Assembly (NCBI GenBank): GCA_934096075.1
Contig: CAKOLN010000003.1
Span: 26,184 to 90,183 of the forward strand
DNA length: 64,000 bases
Direction: 5' to 3'
From: an uncultured Bacilli bacterium
Lineage (GTDB): Bacteria > Bacillota_I > Bacilli_A > RF39 > UBA660
Shown here piece by piece: positions 9,038 to 48,565 of the stretch. The notes under the pieces are model-generated. The model was not told the origin of the DNA. It did not search any database and saw only the letters and a program-made list of their open reading frames with translations. How positions within the stretch are numbered: position 1 is the first letter of the stretch; each line of letters begins with the position of its first letter. The position numbers and the translations under genes were made by a program.

Positions 9038-9120
9038 GTTTTTACTTTTAAAATCATACTAGTTTATTTTAACCAAACATAATATAATATAAGTATAAAT
9101 AAAAAGATAAGGAGAACAAA

Positions 9121-9603: not shown

Positions 9604-9632
9604 CAAGTATCTACTCGAACTAGATACTTTTT
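9601..9632 (+). terminator. Rho-independent terminator (copy A), identical to 12382-12415
   Basis: taacaagtatctactcgaactagatacttttt: 8-bp stem agtatcta/tagatact, 7-nt loop, T-run. Confidence 0.8.
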
Positions 9633-9687
9633 AACTTGCTTAAAAAAATATTGTATTATATAATTTAAGTAGAAAGTAGGGAATGTA

Positions 9688-12384: not shown

Positions 12385-12415
12385 CAAAGTATCTACTCGA
12401 ACTAGATACTTTTTT
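12382..12415 (+). terminator. Rho-independent terminator (copy B), duplicate of 9601-9632 including the preceding TAACAA
   Basis: ttaacaaagtatctactcgaactagatactttttt. Confidence 0.8.
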
Positions 12416-12486
12416 CCTTCTTAATATAGAAATAAACTACATTATTTGATATAATGTATCTGTATAAGAATAAAAAGGAATAAAAT

Positions 12487-13353: not shown

Positions 13354-13377
13354 TGTATAATTGAAGTGGAGGTAAAA

Positions 13378-17817: not shown

Positions 17818-18789
17818 ATGTTAACAAATACAGAACTAGAAGATATAAAAATGTTAATAAACATAGAAAATAACATATATAAAGCATATCTTGAATTAAG
17901 TACCACATTAAAAAGAAATAATGATACTAAAAAGAAAGAACTGATTAGTGAACTAAAAACACTTACAAACATAGAAGAAAATATCTTAAATAGACTTATT
18001 AATTCAGAAAGAAAGTTAAAAGAAATAGAGAAATATCTTAAAGATAATAATTATATAGATGAATTTGTTTGTACAGAAACGGAAATAATAGATAAAAAAA
18101 TAAATCAAATTGGTTTTAGTAAACTAAGACTAGCCAGTAGAATTCAAAATTTTAAATCTAAAATATGTATGCCTGAATTAGACGGAAAAATTATATCAGT
18201 AAAACCACCAAAAAGTGTATTGTTAAAATCATATATATCTAATTACTTATATGATAAAGATTTTTTCAATTTGATTACTTATTATTTATATCGAGAATTA
18301 GAAAATACAAATAACAAAAACAGGAAAGATATGTTAATAGATAAAATTATTTCACTAATATATCTAGACAAAGAACAAGAAAAAAATGCATTATCTAATG
18401 GTTTTAATTCTGATGAAAAAATAATATTAATGTATGATTGTATTACAACTAACCTAGGTATAGATAAAAATTTAGTGAGTGAATATAAAAAAATAAAAAT
18501 AAGTGCTATGACATCAATGACATTAAAAGCTTTAGTGATACCGGATGTATTTTATAATGATGAATCTTCGTATGATACAATAGAATATATTAAAGCGTCA
18601 TTTAAATCATGTTGTTATCTAGCTGATTCAAAGACAAAAGAAAATTTAATAAAACAAATAGAAATTTTAAAAAATACTCCACAAGGACAAATGTGTAAAA
18701 AATCATTTGATGTCTTAAATGATTGTATGAATGAAGTGGAAACATCTACAAATCAAATATACACAATAAAATCTTTAGTCAAAAACTAA
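17818..18789 (+). CDS. Hypothetical protein
   Basis: 323-aa ORF with start context GGGGGATACTATG; no recognisable motifs. Confidence 0.45.
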   Translation: MLTNTELEDIKMLINIENNIYKAYLELSTTLKRNNDTKKKELISELKTLTNIEENILNRLINSERKLKEIEKYLKDNNYIDEFVCTETEIIDKKINQIGFSKLRLASRIQNFKSKICMPELDGKIISVKPPKSVLLKSYISNYLYDKDFFNLITYYLYRELENTNNKNRKDMLIDKIISLIYLDKEQEKNALSNGFNSDEKIILMYDCITTNLGIDKNLVSEYKKIKISAMTSMTLKALVIPDVFYNDESSYDTIEYIKASFKSCCYLADSKTKENLIKQIEILKNTPQGQMCKKSFDVLNDCMNEVETSTNQIYTIKSLVKN

Positions 18790-18798
18790 AGATTCTTT

Positions 18799-19365
18799 TT
18801 ATATAACTTTATCAATAATTCCATACTCTAAAGCTTCGTTACTATCCATAAAATAATCTCTTTCAGTATCATTTTCTATCTTTTTAAGGCTTTTCCCAGT
18901 ATTATCACTTAATATTTTATTAATTTTCTTTTTCAACCTAATAATTCTCTCAGCTGCAATTTTAATCTCAGTTGCTTGCCCTTGACAGCCACCTAAAGGT
19001 TGATGTATCATCACTTCAGAATTTTTAAGTGCCAACCTTTTTCCTTTTTTACCACTAGACAGCAAAAAAGCTGCCATACTAGCACACATTCCAACACATA
19101 TAGTAGAAACATCACTCTTAATAAAATTCATAGTATCATAAATAGCCATCCCGGAAGTTATACTCCCACCAGGACTATTTATATACAAATAAATATCATC
19201 ATTACTAACTCCATCTAAATAAAGTAACTCACTCACCACTACATTACTTACTTCATCATTAATTTCTCCACTCAAAAAAATAATTCTATCTTTAAGTAGT
19301 CTACTATACAAGTCATAATATTTCTCTCTTCCATTTTCTTCTATAGTTATAGTTGGTATAATCAT
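18799..19365 (-). CDS. clpP: ATP-dependent Clp protease proteolytic subunit ClpP
   Basis: 188 aa; catalytic Ser in GMAASMAAF, His in MIHQPLGG; classic ClpP N-terminus. The only minus-strand gene in the window. Confidence 0.92.
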
Positions 19366-19470: not shown

Positions 19471-21120
19471 ATGAAAGACAACATAATAATTGATGTAACT
19501 GGTTATGATAAAGTATTATTTAAAGAAGGCGGTACTCTAGAAGAACTATTAAAAAAAATAGATGCTCCTAAAAACATAATCGCAGGTATAATAAACAATG
19601 AAATATTAGAATTAAATTATAAACTTAAAGAAGACACTACTATAAAACTAATTACTACTAATGATAGACAAGGTTCAAAAATATACATAAATGGTTTAAA
19701 GTTTTTATACATAACTGCTATAAAAGAATTATATGGTGCATCCACTGATGTAAGACTTAAACATAGTTTAGACAAAGGAATATATACAACTATTGATATG
19801 GAACTAAACACAAAAGTATTAGATGATATAAAAGCAAAAATGCATGAACTTGTAGAAAAAGACTTACAAATAGAAAAAATAACAACAAGTAGAAAAGAAG
19901 CTATAAAATATTTTGATTCAATAAATGAACAAGAAAAATCAAGTAACTATAAACAAATGACTAATGAAGTAGTAACTCTTTATTCATTATTAGATTACTA
20001 TAACTATTTCTTTAGTCCAATGCCTATAAGTACAGGAATACTAAAAGATTTTGATCTAACTTTAACAAAAGATAAAGCTGTAATACTAGAATACCCAGAT
20101 ACTCTAACAGGTTCAATACCAAAATATAATCATATGGAAAAAGTACTAAATGTATTTACTACATACTCATCATGGGCAAATAAACTAAATGTTAACTATG
20201 TATCAGATGTAAATAATGTAGTAATCCAAGGAAAAATAAAAGAATTTATTCAACTAAATGAAATAAAACAAAATGATGATCTAAATAAAATAGCTAATGA
20301 AATAGAAAATAACATAAAAGATATAAAACTTGTACTAATCGCAGGACCTTCTTCATCAGGTAAAACAACAACAAGTAAAAAACTATCTTTATACTTAAAA
20401 AACAAAGGAATAAATCCATTTGTAATATCTACAGATGATTACTTTAAAGATAGAAAAGATACTCCAAAGAATGAAAAAGGCGAATACGAATATGACATAC
20501 TAGAAGCATTAGATATTGATTTATTTAATGAACAAATAACTAAATTACTAAATAATGAAAAAGTAAAAATACCAACATATAACTTTATTACTGGAGAAAA
20601 AGAATTTAAAAATAAAGAAATATCTATAGAAAATAGAGACTTAATTATAATTGAAGGTATACATACTTTAAATGAAGAATTAACTAAAAGTATACCTAGA
20701 AAAAATAAGTACAAAATATATATAAGTCCATTTACTCCACTTGATTTAGATAGACATAATCATGTATCAACTGTGGACATTAGACTTATAAGAAGACTAG
20801 TAAGAGATTATAGAACAAGAGGATATGACGGAGAAGCAACCTTAAAAAATTGGCCACTTGTAAGAGCAAGTGAAGAAAAATATATATTTCCTTATCAAAA
20901 AGAAGCAGATGTCGTTTTAAATACTGCTCTAATATATGAATTAGGAATACTTAAAACATATGCAATACCAATTTTACAAGGAATAGACTACAAAAGTGAA
21001 TTTTATATAGAAGCAATAAGAATAATGAATTTCTTAAAATATTTCTTAGATATACCAGAAAGTGCATTACCAACAACAGCACTATTAAGAGAATTTGTTG
21101 GTGGAAGTTATTTTGAATAG
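19471..21120 (+). CDS. TGS-domain / uridine-kinase-family (PRK/URK) fusion nucleoside kinase
   Basis: 549 aa; N-terminal ThrRS-like TGS-type domain; central P-loop LIAGPSSSGKTTT and PRK/URK-like region. Confidence 0.6.
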   Translation: MKDNIIIDVTGYDKVLFKEGGTLEELLKKIDAPKNIIAGIINNEILELNYKLKEDTTIKLITTNDRQGSKIYINGLKFLYITAIKELYGASTDVRLKHSLDKGIYTTIDMELNTKVLDDIKAKMHELVEKDLQIEKITTSRKEAIKYFDSINEQEKSSNYKQMTNEVVTLYSLLDYYNYFFSPMPISTGILKDFDLTLTKDKAVILEYPDTLTGSIPKYNHMEKVLNVFTTYSSWANKLNVNYVSDVNNVVIQGKIKEFIQLNEIKQNDDLNKIANEIENNIKDIKLVLIAGPSSSGKTTTSKKLSLYLKNKGINPFVISTDDYFKDRKDTPKNEKGEYEYDILEALDIDLFNEQITKLLNNEKVKIPTYNFITGEKEFKNKEISIENRDLIIIEGIHTLNEELTKSIPRKNKYKIYISPFTPLDLDRHNHVSTVDIRLIRRLVRDYRTRGYDGEATLKNWPLVRASEEKYIFPYQKEADVVLNTALIYELGILKTYAIPILQGIDYKSEFYIEAIRIMNFLKYFLDIPESALPTTALLREFVGGSYFE

Positions 21121-21132
21121 GAGGAAAAGTAA

Positions 21133-22137
21133 ATGATAAGAGTAGCAATTAATGGTTTTGGGAGAATAGGAAGATGTGCACTAAGACAAATGAGTGAATT
21201 AGATAATGTAAAAGTAGTCGCAATTAATGATTTATCTGATCCACTTACACTAGCATATCTATATAAGTATGATTCAGTTCATAGAACAAATAAAGAAAAA
21301 GTTACATATGATAATGATAGCATAATAGTTAAAGATGAAGAAATTAAAATATTTAAAGAAAATGATCCAAACAATTTACCTTGGAAAGAACTAGATATTG
21401 ATGTTGTTTTAGAATGTACTGGGGTATTCACATCTAGTGAAAAATCTCAAGCACATATAAACGCAGGAGCAAAAAAAGTAATCATAAGCGCACCTTCAAA
21501 AGATGACACGAAAACAGTAGTTTATGGAGTAAATGAAAGTATTTTAAATAGTGAAGATACAATTATAAGTGCTGCTTCTTGTACAACTAATTGTCTAGGA
21601 CCAGTATTAAAATTATTAAATGATAATTACCATGTAATAAGTGGGTTCATGTCTACAGTTCATGCAATGACAAACGACCAAGAAACACTCGATATAACTC
21701 ATAAAAAGGGTATAGAAAGTAGAAGAGGCAGAGCTGCTAGTTTAAACATAGTACCAACTTCAACAGGCGCTGCATCACAAATCGGTAAAGTTATACCCGA
21801 ATTAAATGGTAAACTTGATGGCGTGGCATATCGCGTACCAGTAGGGGATGGTTCACTAATAGACTTAAATGTTTTAGTAGAAAAAAATCCTACAATAGAT
21901 GAAGTAAATAAAATGTTCAAAACTAATCAAAATAATACAATTAAAATAGTAAATGCACCTTTAGTAAGTAGTGATATTATTGGATGTACAGAAGGTGCAG
22001 TAGTTGATTCACTTTTGACAAAAGTACTAGATATGAATGACTATTCAATGATTAAAGTATCAGCATGGTATGATAATGAATGGGGTTATACTAGTCAAAT
22101 GTTAAGAACTATGGAATATTGGATGAGTCTTAAATAA
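21133..22137 (+). CDS. gap: Glyceraldehyde-3-phosphate dehydrogenase
   Basis: NAD-binding INGFGRIGR; catalytic ASCTTNCL; 334 aa. Confidence 0.92.
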   Translation: MIRVAINGFGRIGRCALRQMSELDNVKVVAINDLSDPLTLAYLYKYDSVHRTNKEKVTYDNDSIIVKDEEIKIFKENDPNNLPWKELDIDVVLECTGVFTSSEKSQAHINAGAKKVIISAPSKDDTKTVVYGVNESILNSEDTIISAASCTTNCLGPVLKLLNDNYHVISGFMSTVHAMTNDQETLDITHKKGIESRRGRAASLNIVPTSTGAASQIGKVIPELNGKLDGVAYRVPVGDGSLIDLNVLVEKNPTIDEVNKMFKTNQNNTIKIVNAPLVSSDIIGCTEGAVVDSLLTKVLDMNDYSMIKVSAWYDNEWGYTSQMLRTMEYWMSLK

Positions 22138-22205
22138 AAAAATAATAAACTTGGTTGAAAATAAACAATAAATATAATATTATTAAAGTAGGGAGGTTAA
22201 AAAAT

Positions 22206-22748
22206 ATGACTAAATTAGAAAAAGCTATGCAACAAATGTGTACACCTGGTCTATGGGAAGCAACTATTAACTTTTGTTATCAAAATTCCAATAAAAAAGA
22301 AATATATCTTTATGATGGAGAAAGTAAAGCATACAACATAATAGTAAGAACAGGAATATCACCTTACTATGTAGAAGAACTACTAACAGGAATTCAAATA
22401 CCTATTATTTATCAAAGAAAATTAAAGGAAAAAGGTATAATAGAAGGAAAAATAATAAACAAAATTAATAGGGCTTATGGAGTAGTATTAAATATTTATG
22501 ATAAACCATTTTCAACTAATACCAATTATGAATTTCAACATCAAAATAATACTAATGAATTTTATGGACCATTTAATAAATACTATTCTCTAGATAAAAG
22601 TAAAACGTTAGTTAACAAATATCAAGAGTTGCATCCAGATTATAATGAATTTAAATTAGAATTAGAAGAATATTTAGATAAAACAATAACTGAAATGAAT
22701 GAATACATTAGAAGAGAGCAAATAATAAGATTAAACTTAAAAAAGTAA
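22206..22748 (+). CDS. Hypothetical protein inserted between gap and pgk
   Basis: 180 aa from the ATG at 22206, preceded by GGGAGG; the ORF track extends to 22155. No recognisable domain. Confidence 0.5.
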   Translation: MTKLEKAMQQMCTPGLWEATINFCYQNSNKKEIYLYDGESKAYNIIVRTGISPYYVEELLTGIQIPIIYQRKLKEKGIIEGKIINKINRAYGVVLNIYDKPFSTNTNYEFQHQNNTNEFYGPFNKYYSLDKSKTLVNKYQELHPDYNEFKLELEEYLDKTITEMNEYIRREQIIRLNLKK

Positions 22749-22820
22749 AGAAAGTGTTAAAAACTTTCTTTTTTCTTTTATTAACAAAAAATTATGTATA
22801 TAATAAAATTGGTGATATAT

Positions 22821-23960
22821 ATGAGAAAACTAAAAAATATCAAAGTAGAAAATAAAAAAGTATTAGTAAGAGTAGACTATAATGTACCAATTAAAAATGG
22901 TTTAGTCTTAGATAACAATAGAATAATACAAAGCATTGAAACAATAAATTACTTGATTGAACATAATGCTAAAATAATACTTATGTCTCACATGGGAAAA
23001 GTAAAAAAAGTAGAAGATAAAATGTTAAATACTTTAAAACCAGTAAAAATAGAATTAGAAAGAATATTAAATAGAAAAATTTATTTTGCTGAAGAATTAA
23101 AAGGAAAAGCATTAGAATCTCAAATTAACTCTCTTAAACCAGGAGAAATCTTACTAATGGAAAACACCAGATACATGGATGTTCCAGATAACTTAGAAAG
23201 TAGTTGTGATGAAGAACTTTCTAAATACTGGGCTAGTCTAGGAGATGTATTTATTCTAGATGCCTTTGGTTCATGTCATAGAAATCATGCATCTACTTAT
23301 GGAATAAGTAAGTACTTACCACATGCTATAGGTTTCTTAATAGAAAGAGAATTAAAAGAATTAAATAAAATAAAAAAAGATAAAAAAACTTTCATACTAG
23401 GTGGATCTAAAGTTAGTGATAAAATAGGCATAATAAAAAATCTAATGGACAACACCGACAAATTCTTAATTGGAGGTGCTATGTGTGCAACATTCCTAAC
23501 TGCGAATGGTAATCCAGTAGGAAGTACTTTTGTAGAAACTGATAAAATAACAGAATGTAAAAATCTTTTAAAAACAGGAAAAATAATAATTCCAATAGAC
23601 TATGTAACAGAAAATGGAGTAAAAAAATTAAATGATATATTTAATGATGAACACATACTAGATATTGGACCTAAAACAATAGAACTATTCAAAAATAGAA
23701 TTGATATAAATACCCTTATAGTATTAAACGGAACACTAGGTAAATATGAAGAAGATGCATATCAAAATGGTACAAAAGAAATATTTAATTATCTAAAAGA
23801 AAACATAGTAAAAACAGTAGTGCTTGGTGGAGATACATCATCTGCTGCAAAAAAATATAACTTTAATGCATCATACATTTCAACTGGAGGAGGAGCAAGC
23901 CTAGAATATCTAGAAGGTAAAGAATTTGAAACACTAAAAATAATGGAGGAATCCAAATGA
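22821..23960 (+). CDS. pgk: Phosphoglycerate kinase
   Basis: N-terminus MRKLKNIKVENKKVLVRVDYNVP; C-terminal GGGAS; the upstream ORF-track extension is unlikely. Confidence 0.9.
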   Translation: MRKLKNIKVENKKVLVRVDYNVPIKNGLVLDNNRIIQSIETINYLIEHNAKIILMSHMGKVKKVEDKMLNTLKPVKIELERILNRKIYFAEELKGKALESQINSLKPGEILLMENTRYMDVPDNLESSCDEELSKYWASLGDVFILDAFGSCHRNHASTYGISKYLPHAIGFLIERELKELNKIKKDKKTFILGGSKVSDKIGIIKNLMDNTDKFLIGGAMCATFLTANGNPVGSTFVETDKITECKNLLKTGKIIIPIDYVTENGVKKLNDIFNDEHILDIGPKTIELFKNRIDINTLIVLNGTLGKYEEDAYQNGTKEIFNYLKENIVKTVVLGGDTSSAAKKYNFNASYISTGGGASLEYLEGKEFETLKIMEESK

Positions 23961-24649
23961 AAACAATAGTACTGAATCATAAAAGTTACCTAAGTTATAA
24001 TGAAATAAATAAATATAAAGAAAAAATAAATAACATCCAAACTAAAAATATTAACCTAGTATTAATGCCTAACTTAGCATATCTATCATTATTTAAAGAT
24101 TCTAAAATTAAAATAGGTGCCCAAAATTTCTATAGTTATAACTATGGTTCATACACTGGTGAAATACCTCTTGAAATATTAAAAAGTCTAAACATAAATT
24201 ACACCCTAGTAGGCCATCCAGAAAGAATCACCTTAAAATTAGACACATATGAAGAAATAAAAGAAAAACTATATAGAAGCCTTAACTCAGGTTTCAAAAC
24301 TATTCTTTGTATAGGACATGATGAAAAACTAAGTACAATAAAAAAAGAATTAAAATATTACATAAAATCCTCAGACTATATAGACATAAAAAACTTAATA
24401 ATCGCATATGAACCAATATCTAAAATAGAAAATGAAGAAGCTAACTTAAAAGACATAGAATATTTAAATAAATATATAAAAGAATACTTCATGTATGAAT
24501 TTGAAGAAGAAATAGAATTTTTCTATGGAGGTTCAGTTAATAAAGAAAACATAAATGAAATTCTTAACATAACAGATGGTGTTATAATAGGAAAACTTAG
24601 TACTGACATAAACTCAGTTAAAGAAATAATAGAAAATATAACAAAATAA
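23957..24649 (+). CDS. tpiA: Triosephosphate isomerase, highly divergent (TIM-like)
   Basis: 230 aa; alignable to TIM: K near the N-terminus (NHKSY), catalytic His (GHPERI versus GHSERR), catalytic Glu (AYEP), and YGGSV. However, the loop-6 AIGTG is replaced by SKIENEE and the GGAS phosphate loop by GKLS. ATGA overlap with pgk. Confidence 0.65.
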   Translation: MKTIVLNHKSYLSYNEINKYKEKINNIQTKNINLVLMPNLAYLSLFKDSKIKIGAQNFYSYNYGSYTGEIPLEILKSLNINYTLVGHPERITLKLDTYEEIKEKLYRSLNSGFKTILCIGHDEKLSTIKKELKYYIKSSDYIDIKNLIIAYEPISKIENEEANLKDIEYLNKYIKEYFMYEFEEEIEFFYGGSVNKENINEILNITDGVIIGKLSTDINSVKEIIENITK

Positions 24650-24767
24650 AAACTATAAATACATTTCATGACACAAATCGTCATTATTAGACATAACTAG
24701 ACCTTTTTCGCTATGGATTTATGTATAATAAATTTATATAATAAAGACAGTGTTAAAGGAGAAATAA

Positions 24768-25532
24768 ATGAAAAAGAAAATAATGATTGTGGATGATAAC
24801 AAGGCCTTAGTAGGTATGTTAAAAGAGTTTATAAATAATACTAATGACTTAACATTATTAAAAGAAGCATATAATGGTGGAGAAGCATGGGAATATATAA
24901 AAGATAATTATAGTGAAATAGATGCTTTAATATTGGACTTAGTAATGCCAGAAAAAGATGGAATGTATTTATTAGACAAATTAAAAGAAAACAAAATAAA
25001 TTTAAAAATATTAGTATTAACAAGTTACAACGAACAAGAAACAATAAGAAATGTAAGTGAATATGGAGTAAAATATTTCATGCTAAAACCATTTGACTTA
25101 CAAGAATTACATAAAAGAATACAAGATATAACAAATCCTAAAGCAAAAGAAGCAAAAATAATAAATGTAGAAAAGAATAATACTCAAGCAATGATAACTA
25201 AACTCTTACATGAACTAGGAATACCATCACATATTAAAGGCTATCAATACATAAGAGAAGCCATCAATATGGTATATGATGATCCTAAACTTATAGGAGG
25301 CATAACTAAAGAATTATATCCAGAGATAAGCACTAAATATGGTCAATCAGTAACTCGAGTAGAAAGAGCAATTAGACACGCTATTGAAGTGAGTTGGAAT
25401 CGTGGAGATTGGGACTTAATGGAAGAAATCTTTGGACACTCAGTTGATATAGATCGAGCAAAACCTACAAACTCAGAATTTATAGTAACAATCGCAGACA
25501 AACTAAGATTAGATATGCTAAAAATACATTAA
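24768..25532 (+). CDS. spo0A: Sporulation master regulator Spo0A (REC plus Spo0A_C DNA-binding domain)
   Basis: 254 aa; receiver domain (DDN...D, LDLVMP); C-terminal Spo0A signature HIKGYQYIREAI...ISTKYGQSVTRVERAIRHAIEVSWNRGD...EFIVTIADKL. Confidence 0.9.
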   Translation: MKKKIMIVDDNKALVGMLKEFINNTNDLTLLKEAYNGGEAWEYIKDNYSEIDALILDLVMPEKDGMYLLDKLKENKINLKILVLTSYNEQETIRNVSEYGVKYFMLKPFDLQELHKRIQDITNPKAKEAKIINVEKNNTQAMITKLLHELGIPSHIKGYQYIREAINMVYDDPKLIGGITKELYPEISTKYGQSVTRVERAIRHAIEVSWNRGDWDLMEEIFGHSVDIDRAKPTNSEFIVTIADKLRLDMLKIH

Positions 25533-25584
25533 TTCTTTAAATTAAAAAAGAAATGTGCTAGAATGTATCTAGGTGATAAAAATA

Positions 25585-27093
25585 ATGAAAAAAGTAATAT
25601 TATTAATACTAGATGGATTTGGAATAAACAACAGTGAATATGGAAATGCAATAAAACAAGCAAGAACACCTGTAATAGATAAACTTCTAACAGTTTTTCC
25701 ACATGCACAATTAGCGGCTTCAGGAATAGAAGTTGGACTTCCAAAAGGACAAATGGGAAATAGTGAAGTTGGACACATGACTATAGGTAGTGGTAGAATT
25801 AATCCACAACCATTAACATACATAAATGATAAAATAAAAAGTAAAGAGTTTTTTGATAATGAAGTACTAAAAAATACAATGAACTTTGTAAAGGAAAATA
25901 ACTCAACACTTCACTTAATAGGACTTCTTTCTAATGGTGGAGTTCACTCAAGTATAAATCATTTCTATGCAGCTCTAGCAATGGCTAAACTAGAACATGT
26001 AGAAAAAGTGGTATTTCACTTTATAACTGATGGAAGAGATACAGATCCTAAAAGTGGAGTTAAATTTGTAACGGACTTTATGGAAAAAGCAAATAAACTT
26101 AAACTAGGAGAAATAGGTACTATCTCAGGTAGATATTATGCAATGGATAGAGATAATCGTTGGGAAAGAATAAAAAAATCCTATGATGCAATGTGCTACG
26201 GATTAGGTAATTCTTTTTCAAACTATGAAAGTTGTTTTAAAGAACACTATAAAAGAGATATAACCGACGAATTTATTAATCCAAGTATACTATCAAATAA
26301 CACTATAAAAGATAATGATGCAATACTATTTATTAACTTTAGACCAGAAAGAATGAAAGAACTAATAGATGCATTTCATGATAAAAACTTTAAACCATTC
26401 AAAACAAAACAATATCAAAACTTAAAATTAACATCTTTATTTAACATACATCAAGATATTGAATATGCTTTTGATACTGAAAAACCAAAAGAAACATTTG
26501 GTGAATACATAGATGGATTAGATTATACACAAGCAAGAATAGCTGAAACAGAAAAATATGCTCATGTTACATACTTCTTTGATGGAATGGAAGAACTATC
26601 AAGTAACAAATGTGATAAAATATTAGTACCATCTCCAAGTGTACCAACATATGATATGAAACCTGAAATGAGTGTAGGAGAAGTAACAGAAAATGTTTTA
26701 AAAGCAATTGATAATGATTATGATTTCATATTAGTTAATTTTGCAAATCCAGACATGGTTGGACACACAGGTAACTTTAATGCAACTAAAGATGCTATAG
26801 AAATATGTGACTTCTGTGTAGGAAAAATATTTGAAGCAGCTAAAGAACATTTCTATGAACTAGTAATAACTGCTGACCATGGTAATGCAGAAAAAATGTT
26901 AACAAGAGATGGAACACCAATAACTAGTCACACAACAAGTCTTGTTCCTTTCATAGTATGTAATGAAGAATATAAATTAAAAGAAACAGGATCACTAAAA
27001 GATATAATACCAACAATAATAGATATATATCAAATAAAAAAACCAGACAAAATGACTGGAGAAAGTTTAATAATTAAAGAAGATTCAAAGTAG
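25585..27093 (+). CDS. gpmI: 2,3-bisphosphoglycerate-independent phosphoglycerate mutase
   Basis: Start MKKVILLILDGFG; Ser-phosphotransfer region MGNSEVGHMTIG; metal-binding ADHGNAE; AGGTGA RBS. Confidence 0.9.
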   Translation: MKKVILLILDGFGINNSEYGNAIKQARTPVIDKLLTVFPHAQLAASGIEVGLPKGQMGNSEVGHMTIGSGRINPQPLTYINDKIKSKEFFDNEVLKNTMNFVKENNSTLHLIGLLSNGGVHSSINHFYAALAMAKLEHVEKVVFHFITDGRDTDPKSGVKFVTDFMEKANKLKLGEIGTISGRYYAMDRDNRWERIKKSYDAMCYGLGNSFSNYESCFKEHYKRDITDEFINPSILSNNTIKDNDAILFINFRPERMKELIDAFHDKNFKPFKTKQYQNLKLTSLFNIHQDIEYAFDTEKPKETFGEYIDGLDYTQARIAETEKYAHVTYFFDGMEELSSNKCDKILVPSPSVPTYDMKPEMSVGEVTENVLKAIDNDYDFILVNFANPDMVGHTGNFNATKDAIEICDFCVGKIFEAAKEHFYELVITADHGNAEKMLTRDGTPITSHTTSLVPFIVCNEEYKLKETGSLKDIIPTIIDIYQIKKPDKMTGESLIIKEDSK

Positions 27094-27163
27094 TCTTCTT
27101 TTTTATAATACTTTTTGATAAAATAAAATTATCACAAATTAACAAAAGATGAGGAGTTTAGCT

Positions 27164-28033
27164 ATGAAATACTATATAGAATTACAGGGAACTTGTTGGT
27201 TAGTTCAATACTTAAATTATATTAATAAAGATTATGATAAAGACAGTTTTTTTAAATATCTAGCACTAAATAGATTTTTAAGATACGAAAAGGCAATAAA
27301 ACTTGTTAATAACAAAGAACTTATTAACACTAAAGAATACTTATTAGAAACATTATTAACATTTGAAGGAAGTTTATTTGATATTGAAGATATATTAAAC
27401 TATAAAATAAATTGGGATTTAAAAAATGATATTAAACTAGAAGATATAATGTTAATGAATGAAAAAGTATTGATGTTTTTATTAGAAATGTATGATAACA
27501 ATATAGACTTGAGTAACAAGATTTTTGAAAAGTTAAATAAAACATTTGGTAATTTAAAATTTGAAAAAAATAAAAAAAACACACTTAATATAGTGATAAG
27601 TAATCCAAAATTAGAATACAAAAAAATAAATCTAATTAACAGTGAAAACCTATATCATACTCAGAAAAGTTTTTATAATGTACAAAATGTTAATGAAATA
27701 ATAGATAGAGAATTGACAAAAAACAAAAAGGTTTTAGTTTCAATAGATATAGCTAAATCAGTAACAGACATAAACAAAATTATATATCCGAAAGGAATAA
27801 AAAAGGATACTTTAAATAAATTTATATCTATAGATAATCACTATTACATATTAACTGAAAAAATAACTCTAAATAATGAAACATATTATAAAGCATTCAC
27901 TGGATATCAAAATGATGAATATGCATTAATTTCAAATAAATATTTGAAAGAGTTTCTAAATCATATAATATGTGATAAAATAACAATTAAAGAAGAAACA
28001 ACACTAGATTTTTATAAATATATGGAGGAATAA
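27164..28033 (+). CDS. Hypothetical protein
   Basis: 289 aa from the ATG after the GAGGAG RBS; no motifs recognised. Confidence 0.45.
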   Translation: MKYYIELQGTCWLVQYLNYINKDYDKDSFFKYLALNRFLRYEKAIKLVNNKELINTKEYLLETLLTFEGSLFDIEDILNYKINWDLKNDIKLEDIMLMNEKVLMFLLEMYDNNIDLSNKIFEKLNKTFGNLKFEKNKKNTLNIVISNPKLEYKKINLINSENLYHTQKSFYNVQNVNEIIDRELTKNKKVLVSIDIAKSVTDINKIIYPKGIKKDTLNKFISIDNHYYILTEKITLNNETYYKAFTGYQNDEYALISNKYLKEFLNHIICDKITIKEETTLDFYKYMEE

Positions 28034-28034
28034 A

Positions 28035-28820
28035 ATGCAAGAAATATCAAAATCAAATGAAAAAGTAAAAGAATTAAAAAACTTAAAAAATAAGGGAAAA
28101 AACAATTTAATGGTAGTAGAAGGTTTAGATGTAATTAAAGAAGCAATAAACTATAATGCTGAAATAATGAGTGTGTTTTATAATGAAGAAACATTAAGAG
28201 ATGAGGCACTAGAATTATTAAATGAATGTAAAAAAAGAGCAAAAGAAGTATATAGAATTTCGCTTAAAACATTTGAATCATTAAAAGAAAAAGAAAATGC
28301 AATACCTATCATAATTGTTGTTAAATATAAAGAATTAACATTAAAAGATATAGACAAAAATAAACATAAATTAATAATAGTAAATGATAGAATAGAATTA
28401 CCAGGTAACTTAGGAACTATATATAGAAGTGCATATGCAAGTGGAGTAGACCTAATAATAAATGTTAATCCTGTAACAACAATATACAAAGAAAAATTCT
28501 TGGCCAGTTCAAGAGGAACGATATTCAGTATTCCTACTATAAATACTACATATGAAGAAGCCCAAAAATCACTTTTAGAATTAGGCTATGATATATGTCT
28601 TTGTGAACCAGTTGAAGGAACATCATATAATGAATTTGACTATCAAGAAAATACAGCATTAGTAATAGGAAATGAAAGATTTGGAATTAATAAAGAATGG
28701 TACAATAACAAAAATAGTAAAGTATTTATACCAATGAAAGAAGGTATTAATTCAATAAATGTTTCAGTCGCAGGCTCAATAATAATGTTTGATGCTGGTA
28801 TAAAAATGAGGAAAATATGA
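28035..28820 (+). CDS. TrmH/SpoU-family RNA 2'-O-methyltransferase (RlmB-like)
   Basis: 261 aa; SPOUT motifs (LVIGNERFGI, SINVSVAGSI); stop overlaps the start of the downstream radical-SAM gene (ATGA). Confidence 0.7.
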   Translation: MQEISKSNEKVKELKNLKNKGKNNLMVVEGLDVIKEAINYNAEIMSVFYNEETLRDEALELLNECKKRAKEVYRISLKTFESLKEKENAIPIIIVVKYKELTLKDIDKNKHKLIIVNDRIELPGNLGTIYRSAYASGVDLIINVNPVTTIYKEKFLASSRGTIFSIPTINTTYEEAQKSLLELGYDICLCEPVEGTSYNEFDYQENTALVIGNERFGINKEWYNNKNSKVFIPMKEGINSINVSVAGSIIMFDAGIKMRKI

Positions 28821-30022
28821 AATTAAGTAAATATGTAATTAAGATTCCATATGGCACTAAAGTGATTTTATATAATACAGTAAATGATATGATTGTACTT
28901 TGCGATTATAAAGACTTTTTTAACAAAGAAACAAAACAATATTTAAAAAATAATGGATATTATGATAATAGTGAAAAACAATTAAAAAATTTTATAAAAA
29001 ATACTAAAAAGAAAAGAACCCAACTTGATATAACAATAAGTTTAACAGAGAGTTGTAATTTATGCTGTAAGTACTGCTCTCAAAGTGGAGTAAAAAATGA
29101 TTCATTTATAACTAAAGAAATAATTGATGAAATAATAGAATACATAGAAATTTGTAAAAATAAATATGGCTATAAAACATTTTCAATCCATTTATTTGGT
29201 GGAGAACCATTATTACAAAAGCAGGAGATTCTATATTTAAATAACAAATTAAAAGAAAAAAATATACCAATAAATTATTATATGGATACTAATGGAATAT
29301 TGTTAAGTGAAAAATTTATAAAAGAATTTGATAATATAACTTTTTGTGTAACATTAAGTAACAAATGCGACCACGATAATCTAAGAGTTACTTCAAACAA
29401 TACTGGAAGTTATGATTTAATTATGGAAAATCTAAACAAAATTCAGTATGTACTTGATAACAATCATAGATTAATGGTTAGATATAATGTGAATGATAGA
29501 AATATAAATGACTTAGAAGAATTCCTTAAAACAATTGAAAACATTAAAATAAGTGATTTTGTTGTAGCCTATACAAATAATTATAAAGAAAATTTATTTA
29601 TAAATAAATTACCTTATAAAAAGTATAAAAAATGGAATTCTAAAAAAATAATACCACTACTAGAAAAATATAATTATCCTATATCACTTCCTACATCAAG
29701 TTTTTATTGTAAAGGCTATGAAGACTATTCTATAAAAGTCTTTTCGAATGGTAAAATAGGTATGTGTAATGCCTATGATATTAGTAATTCAAAATATACA
29801 TTAAAAGAAATATTAGAAAACTACTATAAAACAAAAAAACTTATAAAACCTTTTGAAGAAGAAAGAAATCTTGATAATATAATAGATAAAGAATGTAAAA
29901 AATGTGCATTAATATATATATGTAATGGTAAATATTATTGCAGAGATAATAAATGTGATTTTTTAGATTATAATTTAAAAGAATACATTAAATCATATGT
30001 AAAAAATGTATTGAATAAATAA
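28817..30022 (+). CDS. Radical SAM enzyme with C-terminal SPASM/twitch-like Cys cluster and ~75-aa N-terminal extension (putative peptide-modifying maturase)
   Basis: 401 aa; CxxxCxxC as CNLCCKYC at about residues 80-87; C-terminal Cys cluster (MCNAY...CKKCALIYICNGKYYCRDNKC); the N-terminal extension before the rSAM core fits an RRE-like domain. Confidence 0.7.
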   Translation: MKLSKYVIKIPYGTKVILYNTVNDMIVLCDYKDFFNKETKQYLKNNGYYDNSEKQLKNFIKNTKKKRTQLDITISLTESCNLCCKYCSQSGVKNDSFITKEIIDEIIEYIEICKNKYGYKTFSIHLFGGEPLLQKQEILYLNNKLKEKNIPINYYMDTNGILLSEKFIKEFDNITFCVTLSNKCDHDNLRVTSNNTGSYDLIMENLNKIQYVLDNNHRLMVRYNVNDRNINDLEEFLKTIENIKISDFVVAYTNNYKENLFINKLPYKKYKKWNSKKIIPLLEKYNYPISLPTSSFYCKGYEDYSIKVFSNGKIGMCNAYDISNSKYTLKEILENYYKTKKLIKPFEEERNLDNIIDKECKKCALIYICNGKYYCRDNKCDFLDYNLKEYIKSYVKNVLNK

Positions 30023-30061: not shown

Positions 30062-30166
30062 ATGAAAGTAATTAAGAAACCCGTTAAAAAATCTAAAATT
30101 AATGCAGCAGGATGTGGAGAAAACAAGGTTAATAGTAGCCATTGTGCATCAAAGAAAAGTAATTAA
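30062..30166 (+). CDS. Small ORF (34 aa) absent from the ORF track: candidate RiPP precursor / signalling peptide
   Basis: MKVIKKPVKKSKINAAGCGENKVNSSHCASKKSN; RBS AAAGGAA 8 nt upstream; a strong hairpin terminator (aggcccatatgggtct plus T-run, 30174-30200) lies immediately downstream; two Cys residues; sits directly after the rSAM/SPASM gene. Confidence 0.5.
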   Translation: MKVIKKPVKKSKINAAGCGENKVNSSHCASKKSN

Positions 30167-30272
30167 TTAGATTTAGGCCCATATGGGTCTTTATTTTTGT
30201 ATAAAATTACCACTACTTGCATTTTTTTTAAATTGTGCTAAAATAAAGTACACTGAAAAGAGGCGATTATAT

Positions 30273-32036
30273 ATGTCATTAATAAAAAAAGATACAAATT
30301 ATCCTAGTATTGATAAAACTCACGAAAAACAATATAATTTTTTTGAAAATAATCCAATAATTCCAAGCATAAGCATATTTAATGCAATAAACCTTATTAG
30401 TAAAAGCTATTCTAATGAAATTGCTGTTAATAGTTTAGAACTTAACAAGACTTTTAAATCGCTAATAAAAGATTCTGCTTTGCTTTCTAAAGCATTTAAA
30501 GAACTTGGAATAAAAAATGGTGACATAATTGTTGTATCAATGCCTAATTATTATCAAGCTGTAATTACTTTTTTTGCAGCAAATCGCATTGGAGCAACAA
30601 CAACATTTTTAAATTCATTTAGTAGTAAAGAAGAAATTAGTAATTATTTAAACTTATTTGAATCGCCTTTATTTATAAATTATAATAAAAGTGAAGAATA
30701 TAACAAATATATAAAAAATAATACAAAAGTAAGACAAATTATAACCCTATATGAAAAAGATTTAAATATGCCATATTTTAATGATAATACTAATAATTTT
30801 ATAGGCTATAATGATTTTATTTCTTTTAATGATGCAAAATTAGTTGGTAATTACTATAAAAAGCCATTAACAACATTATATGGAGGAAAAGAAAATGCTT
30901 TAATATTATACACAAGTGGAACTACAGGTAATCCAAAATCAGTAGTTTTAACCAATGAAAATATCTTGGCCTCAGGAATATACATGAAAAATTCAACAAA
31001 TTTATCAAATACTAAAGGAGAAAAATCATTAGTATGTGTACCATTTACTTACCCTTATGGTTTTTCAACATCAACATTAATGAGTTTATTATGTGGTAGA
31101 CAAGCAATTCTAGCACCTGATTTATCAAGTGAAAATATAAAAACATATTTAAAGAAAAATCCAAATATAATTTTTGGAAGCCCAGCATTATTAGAACTTA
31201 TAAAAAGAAATACACCTGAAAATCAAGATTTGTCATCAATTAAAACATTTATATCTGGTGGTGATTTTCTAACAGAAACGCAAGCGAAAGAAGGAAAAGA
31301 ATTTTTTAAAAAGCATAATGCAGAAGTAACAATATGTAATGGTTCTGGAAATGCGGAGACAGTTGGCGCCAGCACAAACTCAGTAGGAATAAAAATAAAA
31401 CCAGAAACAGTCGGAAAAATTCTAGTGGGCACAAAAGCAATTGTTATTAATCCTGACACAATGAAAGAATTAAAATATGGTGAAGAAGGTTTATTATGCA
31501 TAAGTGGTAAACATGTGTTTAAAGAATATTATAAAGAGCCAAAACTAACACAGGATTCAAAATTTATTTACAAAGGTAATACATATTTTAAAACAGGAAC
31601 AAGAGGCAAAATAGATAAAGAAGGTTACTTTACTTTAACTGGAAGAGATTCAAGATATTATATTATCTCAACTTTAAATAAAGTATATTGTGATAGAGTA
31701 CAATTAATTATGTCTAGAATAGATTGCATAGAAGCAGTAGCAATAGTAGAAAAACCTGACAAAGAAATGTTGTTTACAAACAAAGCATTTATTGTGTTAA
31801 AGGAAGGTATAAAAGCAAGCGAGGCAATAAAAAAATATATATTAAGAAAATGCACTGAAACTTTGAAATTAGAAAACGGAGAAGATGTTGAACTAAAAGA
31901 ATATGAAATACCTAGTAGCATAGAATTTGTTGAAAAATTGCCTAGAACCAAAGCAGATAAAATTGATTACAATGTTTTAAAAGAAAATGCAATAAATGAA
32001 TATAAAGAAGAACAGCATATACTAAAGCTTAAATAG
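30273..32036 (+). CDS. AMP-dependent synthetase/ligase (adenylate-forming enzyme, acyl-CoA-ligase-like)
   Basis: AMP-binding motif LYTSGTTGNPKSVVLT; A-domain-like architecture; RBS AAGAGG; start at the ATG at 30273. Confidence 0.8.
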   Translation: MSLIKKDTNYPSIDKTHEKQYNFFENNPIIPSISIFNAINLISKSYSNEIAVNSLELNKTFKSLIKDSALLSKAFKELGIKNGDIIVVSMPNYYQAVITFFAANRIGATTTFLNSFSSKEEISNYLNLFESPLFINYNKSEEYNKYIKNNTKVRQIITLYEKDLNMPYFNDNTNNFIGYNDFISFNDAKLVGNYYKKPLTTLYGGKENALILYTSGTTGNPKSVVLTNENILASGIYMKNSTNLSNTKGEKSLVCVPFTYPYGFSTSTLMSLLCGRQAILAPDLSSENIKTYLKKNPNIIFGSPALLELIKRNTPENQDLSSIKTFISGGDFLTETQAKEGKEFFKKHNAEVTICNGSGNAETVGASTNSVGIKIKPETVGKILVGTKAIVINPDTMKELKYGEEGLLCISGKHVFKEYYKEPKLTQDSKFIYKGNTYFKTGTRGKIDKEGYFTLTGRDSRYYIISTLNKVYCDRVQLIMSRIDCIEAVAIVEKPDKEMLFTNKAFIVLKEGIKASEAIKKYILRKCTETLKLENGEDVELKEYEIPSSIEFVEKLPRTKADKIDYNVLKENAINEYKEEQHILKLK

Positions 32037-32110
32037 AATTTATTCGAATAAATATTAAATAAATTCTTTTTTTGTGATATAATTTACTTAAAATACGAGG
32101 AGTTGATTAT

Positions 32111-34327
32111 ATGGGAACTGGAATATACTTTCCAATTAGTGCTTTATTATTTAGCTTATTGATAATGTTATTATTCTTTTTAAAAGAACATATTAATACA
32201 ATGGAAACAAAACTTTATGGTGCAATAGTTATAACAAATTTTTTAGGTTTAATCATTGAAATCCTATGTACATTAGCATCAAAAATATATGAAACTAATA
32301 AACTTTTTGCAGACATTATCTTAAAATTATATCTAGTTTATTTAGTAACATGGGCACTAATATTTACGATTTATATAATATTAATTTCATTTAATAATAA
32401 TAAACTAAAAAATAATAAAGAAAAATTACTTAGAATCGCAAAAATATTTTATTTTATTTCAGTAATAATAATTTATATTTTACCAATTGATTTAGTAATA
32501 AAAAATAATTTTTCAATAAGATATACAACTGGACCAAGTGTATATTTTACATACTTTATTTCATTTGTAATGATTATAGTTATGCTTTATTGTATGATAA
32601 AAAATTATAAAAATTTGAAATCAAAGAAATACCTACCATTATTTACTTTTTTAACTTTAGGTACTGCAACGATGATTTTTCAAATGATTAATCCTCAATT
32701 TTTATTAATAACATATATGGAAACATTTATAACTGTATTAATGTATCATACAATTGAAAACCCAGATGTTAAAATGAAAAATGAATTAGAACTAGCCAAA
32801 AATAAAGCAGATCAAGCAAATAATGCAAAATCAGATTTCTTATCAAGTATGTCGCATGAAATAAGAACACCATTAAATGCAATTGTAGGTTTATCAGAAA
32901 ATATGCAAACAGAAACAAACATGAATGTAATACATTCTAATGCAAAAGATGTAGTCGATGCAAGTTATATACTTTTAGATATAGTAAATAGTATACTAGA
33001 TATAAGTAAAATAGAAGCAGGAAAAATGGAAATGGTAAATACTAACTATAATCTAAAAAGTGAAGTAAAAAAACTAGTAAAACTATTAGAAACAAGAATA
33101 GGAGAAAAAGATTTAAAACTAGTAACAAATATAAGTGATGAAATACCAAATGTATTATATGGGGATGTAAATAAAGTAAAACAAATAATAACAAACTTAG
33201 TAACAAATGCAATAAAATATACAGACAGTGGAGAAGTAGATTTCACAATAGATGCAGAAAACAAAGATGATAAATGTAACTTAACAATAACAGTAAAAGA
33301 TACAGGAAGAGGAATAAAAGAAGAACAACTAAAACACCTATATGAAAAATTTGAAAGACTAGAAAGTGATAAAAACACAACAATCGAAGGAACAGGATTA
33401 GGACTAGCAATAACAAAACAATTAGTAGGAATGTTTAAAGGAACAATAACAGTAGATAGTATATATGGAAAAGGTTCAACATTCAAAGTAACACTAACAC
33501 AAGACATAAAAGAAGGAGTAATACTAGAAGAACATAATGAAACAGAACAACAAAAATATAATAATGTAAAAGTACTAGTAGTAGATGATAGTAGTCTAAA
33601 CTTAAAAGTAGCCGACACAATATTAAGAAAATATAATATAGAAACAGAACTAGTAACAAGTGGACAAGAATCAATAGAAAAATGCAAAACAAATAAATAT
33701 GATATAGTATTTATGGACATAATGATGCCTTCAATGTCAGGAGAAGAAACATTAAAAAAACTAAAAGAAATAAAAGACTTTAACACACCAGTGGTAGCCT
33801 TAACCGCAGATGCAATGGAAGGAAAGAAAGAAATATATCTAAGTGAAGGATTTATAGATTATCTAAGTAAACCAATACAAAGACCAGAATTAGAAGAAGT
33901 ACTAGGTAAAATATTAAGTAATAACATTTCATCAGAAACAAGAACAGAAGATAAAAGTACAAATAACCTATCATACTTAGAAGAACACGGTATAGATACA
34001 AAAACGCCATTAGAAATGTTTGGTAGTGAAGAAATGTACATAGATTCAATAAAAACATTTATAGAAGAAACACCAGAATCTTATACTAATCTTATGAGAT
34101 ACTATTTAGACAATGATTTAGAAGATTATAAAATTTTAGTTCACAAATTAAAAAGTGAAAGCAGGTATATTGGACTAAATAAATTCTCAGATATGTGTTT
34201 AGAACATGAAATAAAAGCAAAAGAAGGGGATAATCAATATATAATATCTAACTTTAGTAGCTTAATAAAAGAATACAAAAATGTAATGAGAATATTAAAA
34301 GATTTTATATGTACGACAAATAAATAA
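32111..34327 (+). CDS. Hybrid sensor histidine kinase (7 TM – HisKA – HATPase_c – REC – HPt)
   Basis: 738 aa; seven N-terminal TM helices; H-box SHEIRTPLNAI; N/G boxes (NAIKYT, GTGLGLAI); REC (VLVVDDSSLN...FMDIMMP); C-terminal HPt-like helix with HKLKSES. Confidence 0.8.
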   Translation: MGTGIYFPISALLFSLLIMLLFFLKEHINTMETKLYGAIVITNFLGLIIEILCTLASKIYETNKLFADIILKLYLVYLVTWALIFTIYIILISFNNNKLKNNKEKLLRIAKIFYFISVIIIYILPIDLVIKNNFSIRYTTGPSVYFTYFISFVMIIVMLYCMIKNYKNLKSKKYLPLFTFLTLGTATMIFQMINPQFLLITYMETFITVLMYHTIENPDVKMKNELELAKNKADQANNAKSDFLSSMSHEIRTPLNAIVGLSENMQTETNMNVIHSNAKDVVDASYILLDIVNSILDISKIEAGKMEMVNTNYNLKSEVKKLVKLLETRIGEKDLKLVTNISDEIPNVLYGDVNKVKQIITNLVTNAIKYTDSGEVDFTIDAENKDDKCNLTITVKDTGRGIKEEQLKHLYEKFERLESDKNTTIEGTGLGLAITKQLVGMFKGTITVDSIYGKGSTFKVTLTQDIKEGVILEEHNETEQQKYNNVKVLVVDDSSLNLKVADTILRKYNIETELVTSGQESIEKCKTNKYDIVFMDIMMPSMSGEETLKKLKEIKDFNTPVVALTADAMEGKKEIYLSEGFIDYLSKPIQRPELEEVLGKILSNNISSETRTEDKSTNNLSYLEEHGIDTKTPLEMFGSEEMYIDSIKTFIEETPESYTNLMRYYLDNDLEDYKILVHKLKSESRYIGLNKFSDMCLEHEIKAKEGDNQYIISNFSSLIKEYKNVMRILKDFICTTNK

Positions 34328-34394
34328 AAATGTAAACAGGTAATAAGAAAAAATATTATCTGTTTTTTCTATTTGCCTATAATGCTTGAAAAAA

Positions 34395-48456: not shown

Positions 48457-48565
48457 TCATAAATACTCTAAAAATTTAGAGTATTTTTATTTTGAAAATA
48501 TTGTGAAACTATTCAAATTATTTTACATTTGTGGTATGATTATAAATAGAATAGGTGTGATACTA

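Follow-up and report, generated by a model that had tools for sequence, protein, structure and literature searches.

What does a hybrid histidine kinase with a seven-transmembrane (7TM) sensor perceive, and to which protein does it pass its phosphoryl group? The question is raised by a 738-aa kinase encoded in a 64,000-nt stretch of DNA from an uncultured Bacilli bacterium (GenBank assembly GCA_934096075.1, contig CAKOLN010000003.1, positions 26,184 to 90,183 of the forward strand), referred to here as the window. A sequence-only reading had described the domain order as 7TM-HisKA-HATPase-REC-HPt and proposed either a fused mini-phosphorelay feeding Spo0A or a sensor for an adjacent modified peptide. 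We lean, if only slightly, towards another answer: that an adenylating enzyme of the ANL superfamily, encoded directly upstream, and the 7TM domain form a matched, exchangeable input cassette on a shared DHp-CA-REC(-HPt) output module, with the 7TM domain acting as receptor and a lipophilic carboxylate or acyl compound as its ligand.

The kinase gene lies in surroundings of 25% G+C in which all neighbouring genes share its strand, and the exact 738-aa protein is present on public contigs. The following features were placed on the gene and its flanks.

32075..32083, plus strand: extended −10-like element TGaTATAAT, read from the sequence, 14 nt 5' of the ribosome-binding site
32111..34327, plus strand: hybrid histidine kinase gene, a single ATG-to-stop open reading frame (ORF) of 738 aa (7TM, HisKA, HATPase, REC, HPt)
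32111..32755, plus strand: 7TM sensor domain, aa 1-215, a bundle of helices resembling a G-protein-coupled receptor
32750..32767, plus strand: TIENPD junction between transmembrane helix 7 (TM7) and DHp, aa 214-219, invariant in family alignments
32825..33022, plus strand: HisKA/DHp domain (Pfam HisKA, aa 239-304, 52 bits)
33161..33499, plus strand: HATPase_c domain (Pfam, aa 351-463, 97 bits)
33572..33901, plus strand: internal receiver (Pfam Response_reg, aa 488-597, 87 bits)
33962..34315, plus strand: C-terminal HPt domain, aa 618-735, with H678 at codon 34142-34144
34334..34368, plus strand: A+T-rich hairpin and T-run 3' of the kinase stop codon, likewise read from the sequence, preceding the S10 operon leader

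Pfam, a profile of the HPt module and the AlphaFold2 topology agree on the domain order, so that the earlier description of the protein was correct. No Pfam model matched aa 1-215. AlphaFold2, run on a 23-sequence alignment, nevertheless gave a well-defined 7TM domain (predicted local distance difference test 88, predicted template-modelling score 0.86) with helices at aa 6-24, 31-59, 64-93, 97-123, 142-164, 172-193 and 200-215 and a predicted extracellular β-hairpin of 14 residues at aa 127-140. Because the Lys-rich loops 1-2, 3-4 and 5-6 would be cytoplasmic, the seven predicted helices are oriented with the N-terminus out and the C-terminus in. A lysine in the outer half of TM3, K72, is nearly invariant among relatives.

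The cytoplasmic part contains every residue expected of an active relay. The phospho-acceptor H249 (codon 32855-32857) sits in an invariant H-box, SHEIRTP, and the HATPase boxes are complete, with N366, G1 at 397-401 (DTGRGI, 397-402) and G2 at 427-431 (GTGLGL, 427-432). In the receiver, the phospho-acceptor D536 (codon 33716-33718) is accompanied by D492/D493, T565 and K587. The Pfam Hpt model matched aa 647-702 with 23.7 bits, slightly under its cut-off of 24.6. When a profile of the family's C-terminal module was compared with the PDB, HPt domains alone were matched (CheA P1, 9.7e-5; HPt proteins, 1.3e-4). H678 lines up with the phospho-histidine of the BarA HPt domain in a single-sequence alignment, and the surrounding motif HxLKS(D/E)xxYxG (VHKLKSESRYIGL) is invariant across canonical relatives. 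By these residues, the window kinase is a fused H1-D1-H2 phosphorelay module, i.e. an unorthodox hybrid kinase, with its catalytic and phosphorylation sites intact.

Immediately upstream of the kinase lies the gene of the putative partner.

30183..32036, plus strand: AMP-binding enzyme of the ANL superfamily, acyl-CoA-synthetase-like (Pfam AMP-binding, 182 bits)

Translation of this enzyme probably starts at 30273, giving 587 aa. Its closest solved structure is FadD-1 (3g7s, 7e-29), and its nearest solved relatives are fatty-acyl-CoA ligases; all NCBIfam scores were under their cut-offs. Motifs A3 (TSGTTGxPK), A7 and A8 and the A10 lysine are conserved in an alignment of 74 partner enzymes. 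A hinge insertion had been suspected from the Pfam coordinates and was dropped, the family alignment having ordinary A8-A10 motifs. The kinase gene has its own ribosome-binding site, GAGGAG, at 32097-32102, and the extended −10-like element suggests that it may have a promoter of its own. No G+C-rich terminator was called between the two genes by a scan that needs at least three G-C pairs and that therefore left the hairpin at 34334-34368 uncalled.

To learn how general this arrangement is, we gathered 94 instances of the kinase family with up to 10 kb of flank per side, annotated them with a custom ORF caller and hidden Markov models (HMMs), and dereplicated the loci at 90%. Metagenome contigs were scanned with an alignment of the N-terminal region only; a scan of genome contigs with the full-length alignment gave at least four family loci (L005, L010, L012 and L030) among the matches listed. 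In 82 of 91 loci (59 of 66 after dereplication), the gene just before the kinase, in the same orientation, encodes an ANL enzyme of 580-660 aa, and the adjacency holds down to ~25-30% sensor identity. Apart from this gene, the neighbourhoods are unrelated to one another: we found no other conserved neighbour and no recurring DNA-binding regulator across the family loci. Several loci, L157, L169 and L139 among them, carry enzyme-kinase-enzyme-kinase tandems in which the pair has been duplicated as a unit. In L002, L163 and L090, the kinase has a PF01553 (PlsC-type) acyltransferase gene beside it.

The phosphotransfer end of the protein is far more variable. Among complete kinases, 21 of 71 have a fused HPt domain (14 of 48 dereplicated). 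A separate HPt-REC gene (245-274 aa) follows directly in five loci, all distinct after dereplication (L005, L118, L127, L162 and L166), and a REC-only gene (124 aa) overlaps the stop codon of an HPt-fused kinase in three (including L088 and L101; one dereplicated). The hosts come from gut and rumen metagenomes, and the few named relatives are metagenome-assembled genomes labelled 'Bacilli bacterium' or 'Mycoplasmatota bacterium'. Most of the family belongs to low-G+C gut Bacilli, and a few of its proteins come from Clostridia. For the window itself, ribosomal protein L2 shares a 90% cluster with Clostridium sp. CAG:628. The sensor domain alone is represented by 1223 cluster representatives at 50% identity. 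Homologue names in databases are generic only, and a literature search found no description of the kinase family or of the ANL-kinase pairing.

Sensor, kinase core and enzyme have not changed at the same pace. For 71 instances, pairwise identities of the transmembrane (TM) domain correlated most strongly with those of the enzyme (r = 0.80) and less so with those of the core (r = 0.50), the core-enzyme correlation being 0.41. The TM-enzyme correlation persisted when the core was held constant (partial r = 0.76), and that between core and enzyme vanished when the TM domain was held constant (partial r = 0.01). In at least five lineages, cores ≥95% identical are joined to TM domains of 25-45% and enzymes of 26-42% identity. 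The extreme case is the L157 tandem, whose two cores share 99.2% nucleotide identity over 1197 bp and whose sensors and enzymes are 29% and 28% identical, respectively. In the L157/L169 tandems (8157-15549), the core copies have 99.2-99.3% DNA identity with 8-10 differences, and sensors and enzymes remain below 30%; the identical tract begins 19 nt before TIENPD and extends beyond the stop codon. Since two independent contigs agree, with 8-10 differences between cores, these tandems are not products of assembly collapse. Conversely, what we term the type-A cassette (enzyme 57-63% and sensor 56-62% identical to those of the window) is found with five distinct core clusters, one of which, in L096 (enzyme 63%, sensor 56%), is a dead kinase in which the catalytic His is replaced by Ala. 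Near-identical cores with divergent cassettes, together with type A on five cores, indicate that the core follows the genome and the cassette follows its type. Judged from these alignments, the kinase cores evolve in concert, being near-identical among paralogues and alleles, and TIENPD, the hallmark of the family, also marks the left-hand limit of the homogenised, recombining core. Many metagenome contigs stop right after the sensor domain, which suggests that genomes contain several copies of the core and that assembly breaks off at them.

The same joints are visible at the window locus. A DNA comparison of four strains gave a mosaic with joints at domain boundaries, namely TM7/DHp and the REC/HPt linker. 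L002 is 97-99% identical to just after pgm and then again from kinase codon ~205 on; in between, it encodes a PF01553 acyltransferase and a 7TM domain unrelated to the window's (25% identity). L004 has a third sensor type, and DNA homology with both L002 and L004 restarts at window ~32725, i.e. kinase codon ~205. L003 has the same enzyme and sensor (97-98%) without the radical S-adenosylmethionine (rSAM) enzyme and peptide genes described below. Its kinase has a pseudo-HPt domain with Asp replacing His, and a dockerin protein is encoded downstream; the L001/L003 homology break falls at window ~33957, codon ~616, in the REC/HPt linker just upstream of HPt. Two further sensors and another ANL enzyme are found on the same core in L170 and L171. 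We had treated L003 as an allele of the window locus and withdrew this, as L170 and L171 show its right-hand flank accompanying other sensors; L003 may represent another, paralogous locus, or a chimera joined within the repeated core.

Kinase chemistry appears to be dispensable in part of the family. The H-box His is absent from 31 of 67 distinct complete proteins (Asn in 16, Gln in 9, Ile in 4, Ala in 1 and Gly in 1), and none of the 31 has a G2 box or a fused HPt domain. This subfamily (e.g. L136, L150, L124 and L159) retains the 7TM domain, TIENPD and a receiver-like domain, and 29 of its 31 members keep the upstream ANL enzyme. By comparison, the 18 proteins with a fused HPt domain are canonical throughout, as is the window kinase. 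Since His-less members keep the enzyme and the 7TM domain, what stays constant across the family is the set of enzyme, 7TM domain and TIENPD, with kinase chemistry optional.

Putting these observations together, we propose that one lipophilic carboxylate or acyl compound would be both activated or produced by the enzyme and bound, inside the membrane, by the 7TM bundle; alternatively, the bundle might read the activity of the enzyme by direct contact. The 7TM domain would then govern autophosphorylation of H249, and the phosphoryl group would pass to D536, to H678 and on to a receiver encoded elsewhere than beside the kinase. Several cassettes per genome would feed the identical output module, and for that reason the response is probably common to them rather than substrate-specific. 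We infer a lipid or acyl ligand because the relatives of the enzyme are fatty-acyl-CoA ligases, the ANL motifs are intact, PlsC-type acyltransferases recur and K72 lies in TM3. Within this frame, the first choice, though it falls short of an even chance, would be substrate or flux sensing by a 'transceptor' with vectorial acylation. A signal-synthase/receptor pair is a serious second possibility, and purely protein-protein co-sensing is the least favoured of the three, if still a tenable one.

Several points weigh against a functional coupling of this kind. The −10-like element suggests that enzyme and kinase are separately transcribable. If the cores are identical, the output cannot be substrate-specific, which is a poor fit with simple induction of the cognate enzyme. 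The TM-enzyme correlation could stem from physical linkage alone after gene conversion of the core, and we no longer take it as proof of co-evolution, since linkage plus core conversion yields the same pattern. Chimeras may have arisen in short-read metagenome contigs where they cross the repeated core, and some 'alleles' may be paralogues. Finally, a few loci have no adjacent ANL partner: L004 has none, L002 has an acyltransferase instead, and in L085 and L091 the enzyme lies two genes off. The same observations (a possible kinase promoter, linkage as a sufficient cause of the correlation, contigs that break or may be mis-joined within the core, and members without an adjacent ANL gene) are what one would expect if the adjacency were hitch-hiking, the kinase an ordinary intramembrane sensor of envelope or lipid stress, and the mosaic a mixture of core gene conversion and assembly chimeras. 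We regard this alternative as unlikely. It does not readily account for an adjacency that persists to ~25-30% sensor identity in unrelated neighbourhoods, for tandem duplications that always copy the enzyme-kinase pair, or for the pair being kept in 29 of 31 members without the catalytic His; and chimeric assembly sits poorly with L157 and L169, which agree independently on the tandem and have 8-10 core differences over 1197 nt (99.2-99.3%). Conserved adjacency and co-duplication of the pair are a stronger argument for functional coupling than the correlation.

Comparison with known systems helps to place this proposed enzyme-matched receptor, which departs from every one of them in one or more defining features. 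The best NCBIfam matches of the window kinase are BarA (342 bits versus an equivalog cut-off of 890), TorS (336 versus 676.5) and ArcB (284 versus 838), each far short of its cut-off. These kinases share its cytoplasmic domain order and H1-D1-H2 sites. The window protein differs in having a 7TM bundle without periplasmic, PAS or HAMP part as its sensor, in belonging to a Gram-positive spore former and in lacking a cognate DNA-binding regulator gene nearby.

A closer functional parallel is the Rpf system for the diffusible signal factor (DSF) of Xanthomonas. RpfC is a multi-TM sensor, with five TM helices, fused to HisKA-HATPase-REC-HPt, and it senses a fatty-acid signal; RpfB, a fatty-acyl-CoA ligase, is encoded in the same cluster. 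Both the kinase architecture and the acyl-CoA-ligase-like neighbour gene resemble the window pair. The sensors, however, have no detectable sequence relation (seven versus five TM helices), and an RpfF-type crotonase synthase and an RpfG HD-GYP regulator were absent among the conserved neighbours of the 94 loci.

In Vibrio, LuxN and CqsS are multi-TM HisKA-HATPase-REC kinases, each encoded beside the gene of an enzyme that makes an acyl-derived ligand, and the receptors converge on one HPt protein, LuxU. Many members of the present family likewise lack a fused HPt domain, HPt(-REC) being encoded by a gene of its own in some, an arrangement reminiscent of the parallel quorum-sensing circuit of LuxN and CqsS with LuxU (PMC4398556). 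The differences are that the family's partner is an ANL adenylating enzyme rather than a synthase of acyl-homoserine lactone or CAI-1, that HPt is fused in the window protein, and that relatives have as terminal partner a receiver alone rather than a LuxO-type regulator.

The block-wise exchange of sensor and enzyme recalls pherotype loci. In agr (AgrB-D-C), comQXP and blp, the signal-production genes and the sensor part vary within a species as one block next to a conserved kinase domain, with the recombination joint where sensor and kinase meet; these kinases sense peptides, and several are of the HPK10 type. Block variation of sensor and production gene, with a sensor/kinase joint, is what we see in the window cassette, and a further example of such a locus is comCD (PMC5629823). 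The family's cassette types differ in being ancient and common to several species (type A, 56-63% across genera), and look more like discrete specificities than rapid diversification. Of the two likenesses that the sequence-only reading had put up for comparison, that to AgrC/ComD fails on the HisKA type of the kinase with its REC and HPt domains and on Spo0A being the only other REC protein of the window, and that to 7TMR-DISM sensors (PF07695/PF07696) on the absence of a match to the 7TMR-DISM_7TM model (E 0.92 in one of 23 members) and of an extracellular domain beyond the hairpin. RetS and LadS, which act with GacS, are 7TM-anchored hybrid kinases, some of which work without kinase chemistry by modulating a partner kinase. 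Their 7TM anchoring and the His-less pseudokinases recall the family, and the RetS kinase domain was among the matches; by contrast, the family lacks the DISMED2 extracellular domain, and the window protein is fully canonical.

Could the 7TM domain instead sense a peptide? Upstream of the ANL enzyme lies a strain-variable stretch with the following features.

27149..28820, plus strand: 294-aa protein and SpoU-family RNA 2'-O-methyltransferase, the left part of the strain-variable island
28817..30022, plus strand: radical-SAM/SPASM-like peptide maturase, 401 aa (best match PapB family, 75 bits versus a cut-off of 340)
30062..30166, plus strand: 34-aa ORF MKVIKKPVKKSKINAAGCGENKVNSSHCASKKSN with two Cys, likely a precursor of a ribosomally synthesized and post-translationally modified peptide (RiPP)
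30175..30200, plus strand: intrinsic-terminator-like hairpin and T-run, the sole one called in 24.5-34.7 kb, closing the rSAM-peptide unit

The rSAM-peptide unit is likely a small RiPP cluster, although the maturase, at 75 versus 340 bits, does not reach the cut-off for PapB-type ranthipeptide maturases and can be called only generically radical-SAM/SPASM-like. The peptide-modification locus noted earlier is this unit, which does not adjoin the kinase directly, as the AMP-binding enzyme gene at 30183-32036 intervenes. As for the SpoU methyltransferase (28035-28820), it is weakly similar to NshR/TsnR thiopeptide-resistance 23S rRNA methyltransferases (78 bits versus a cut-off of 425) and to RlmB, and could be a self-resistance gene or a plain housekeeping methylase.

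A quorum-sensing circuit of the agr or com kind, in which the 7TM domain senses the mature rSAM-modified 34-aa peptide, would fit the common direction of the rSAM, peptide, enzyme and kinase genes and the multi-TM sensors typical of peptide pheromone receptors. The block from the 294-aa protein through SpoU, rSAM, peptide and ANL enzyme to the kinase is seen again in L162, in another genomic context, with the 294-aa protein 47%, SpoU 75%, rSAM 64% and the peptide 76% identical; its rSAM-peptide-terminator unit lies at 6728-8079. In L162, however, DNA homology ends after the peptide gene and restarts in the kinase core, and the intervening enzyme (27%) is unrelated to that of the window and the sensor a different one. 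Sensor and peptide thus separate both ways, since L003 has the same sensor (98%) without the peptide. The rSAM and peptide genes occur in only two of ~68 family lineages, compared to 89% for the ANL enzyme, and a terminator closes the peptide unit. The kinase, moreover, is of HisKA rather than HPK10 type and has REC and HPt domains, and neither a LytTR regulator nor an AgrB-like protein was found in the window. These data argue against the kinase being the sensor for the peptide, a reading we consider very unlikely.

The remaining proposal concerns the output. Spo0A, whose presence in the genome the sequence-only reading had asserted, is genuine.

24768..25532, plus strand: spo0A (TIGR02875, 264 bits versus a cut-off of 200), given for context only

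The gene sits 6.6 kb upstream of the kinase on the same strand, inside a row of glycolytic genes (21133-27093: gap, a gene for a 197-aa protein without assigned function, pgk, tpi, spo0A, pgm), an unusual spot; the same gap-to-pgm order with spo0A is found in L002 and L003. Custom REC and HPt HMMs and tblastn found no second receiver, Spo0F-like or HPt-REC gene in the 64-kb window. Neither Spo0F nor Spo0B was found there, and within it REC domains are confined to the kinase and Spo0A. A cognate response regulator was accordingly not found beside the kinase within the window, though some relatives carry a downstream HPt-REC or REC-only gene. Sporulation-related genes occur in the window (GerQ, 12-338; a CtpB-like S41 protease, 48503-49768) and near a family kinase (CotE, L088 16058-16588), consistent with spore-forming hosts.

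If the kinase were a fused mini-phosphorelay, H678 would phosphorylate Spo0A, replacing Spo0F plus Spo0B and controlling the initiation of sporulation. The fused H1-D1-H2 part of this idea stands, with all sites intact; the specific link to Spo0A finds no support in the comparison of loci. The logic is shared with the Spo0F-Spo0B-Spo0A phosphorelay, i.e. four His-Asp-His-Asp steps in a spore-former genome with spo0A nearby; the window contains GerQ, the CtpB-like protease and Spo0A, the last being the sole other REC protein; no receiver gene lies 3' of the kinase; and many sensors on one output module resemble KinA-E converging on Spo0F. The premise that Clostridia lack Spo0F and Spo0B is itself dated (PMC11210211), and hybrid HK-REC kinases have a part in the sporulation of C. 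beijerinckii and A. thermocellus, for which a novel relay to Spo0A has been proposed (PMC11210211). On the other hand, spo0A lies within 10 kb of the kinase only in the near-identical strains L001-L003 and at no other family locus; in the L087 lineage, the enzyme-kinase-S10 synteny is kept without spo0A upstream. The RFN20 lineages CAG-288 and CAG-826 have no spo0A at all (PMC10868615). The proximity in the window is explained by the kinase lying in a strain-variable island placed there. Relatives have a dedicated HPt-REC or REC-only partner in the position that Spo0A would occupy, and a pseudo-HPt variant (His to Asp) exists within the same species group. Compared to the Spo0F-Spo0B-Spo0A relay, D1 and H2 are fused to the kinase and HPt is a monomeric four-helix domain, not Spo0B-like; compared to sporulation kinases, the window kinase has neither a PAS domain nor a conserved spo0A linkage. 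A mini-phosphorelay to Spo0A is thus improbable, about as much so as hitch-hiking. A combined version, in which orthogonal, pherotype-like, enzyme-coupled acyl receptors converge on one relay that delivers phosphate to Spo0A and so connects nutrient or acyl sensing to sporulation, strikes us as a shade less probable still.

Some other features of the window and its relatives deserve brief mention. The region 5041-9037 has the order L9, DnaB, M23/LysM/G5 peptidase, YycJ-like metallo-β-lactamase and RlmH, and the walR/walK pair is not at its Bacillus position there, which may reflect a reduced two-component repertoire. An IS200/IS605 element at 481-1968 encodes the Y1 transposase TnpA and TnpB (OrfB_IS605, with a Cas12f-like TNB domain). 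A 141-aa ORF at 57168-57593 joins two short stretches, one from either end of a UvrD-type helicase, and is probably a gene remnant; in L087 and L088, full-length UvrD is encoded just upstream of the enzyme-kinase pair. An 898-aa ORF at 9688-12384 has no Pfam match at E ≤ 1e-4. The 549-aa protein encoded at 19471-21120 has a C-terminal uridine-kinase/PRK domain and an N-terminal extension of ~270 aa with only a weak match to threonyl-tRNA synthetase. In L003, a 262-aa protein (18022-18810) starts with an OmpR-type receiver and the beginning of a winged helix and continues with an unrelated tail rich in Asn, Ser and Thr; it resembles a response regulator that has decayed or become chimeric, and has no window counterpart.

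HPt-bearing hybrid kinases are uncommon in Firmicutes, and this one bears on environmental sensing by reduced-genome gut Bacilli. The family described here is large and previously undescribed, and its sensor domain has no Pfam model. Its genetic logic is unusual: an adenylating enzyme and a 7TM receptor move together, and the signalling module is kept identical or even loses catalysis. For sporulation biology, the kinase is a testable candidate for a non-canonical route to Spo0A, a route that the present evidence does not favour. If the coupling of enzyme and receptor is functional, it would represent a new input principle for two-component systems, an enzyme-matched intramembrane receptor, and the cassettes, with their precise domain-boundary joints, would be natural 'plug-in' sensors useful for receptor engineering.

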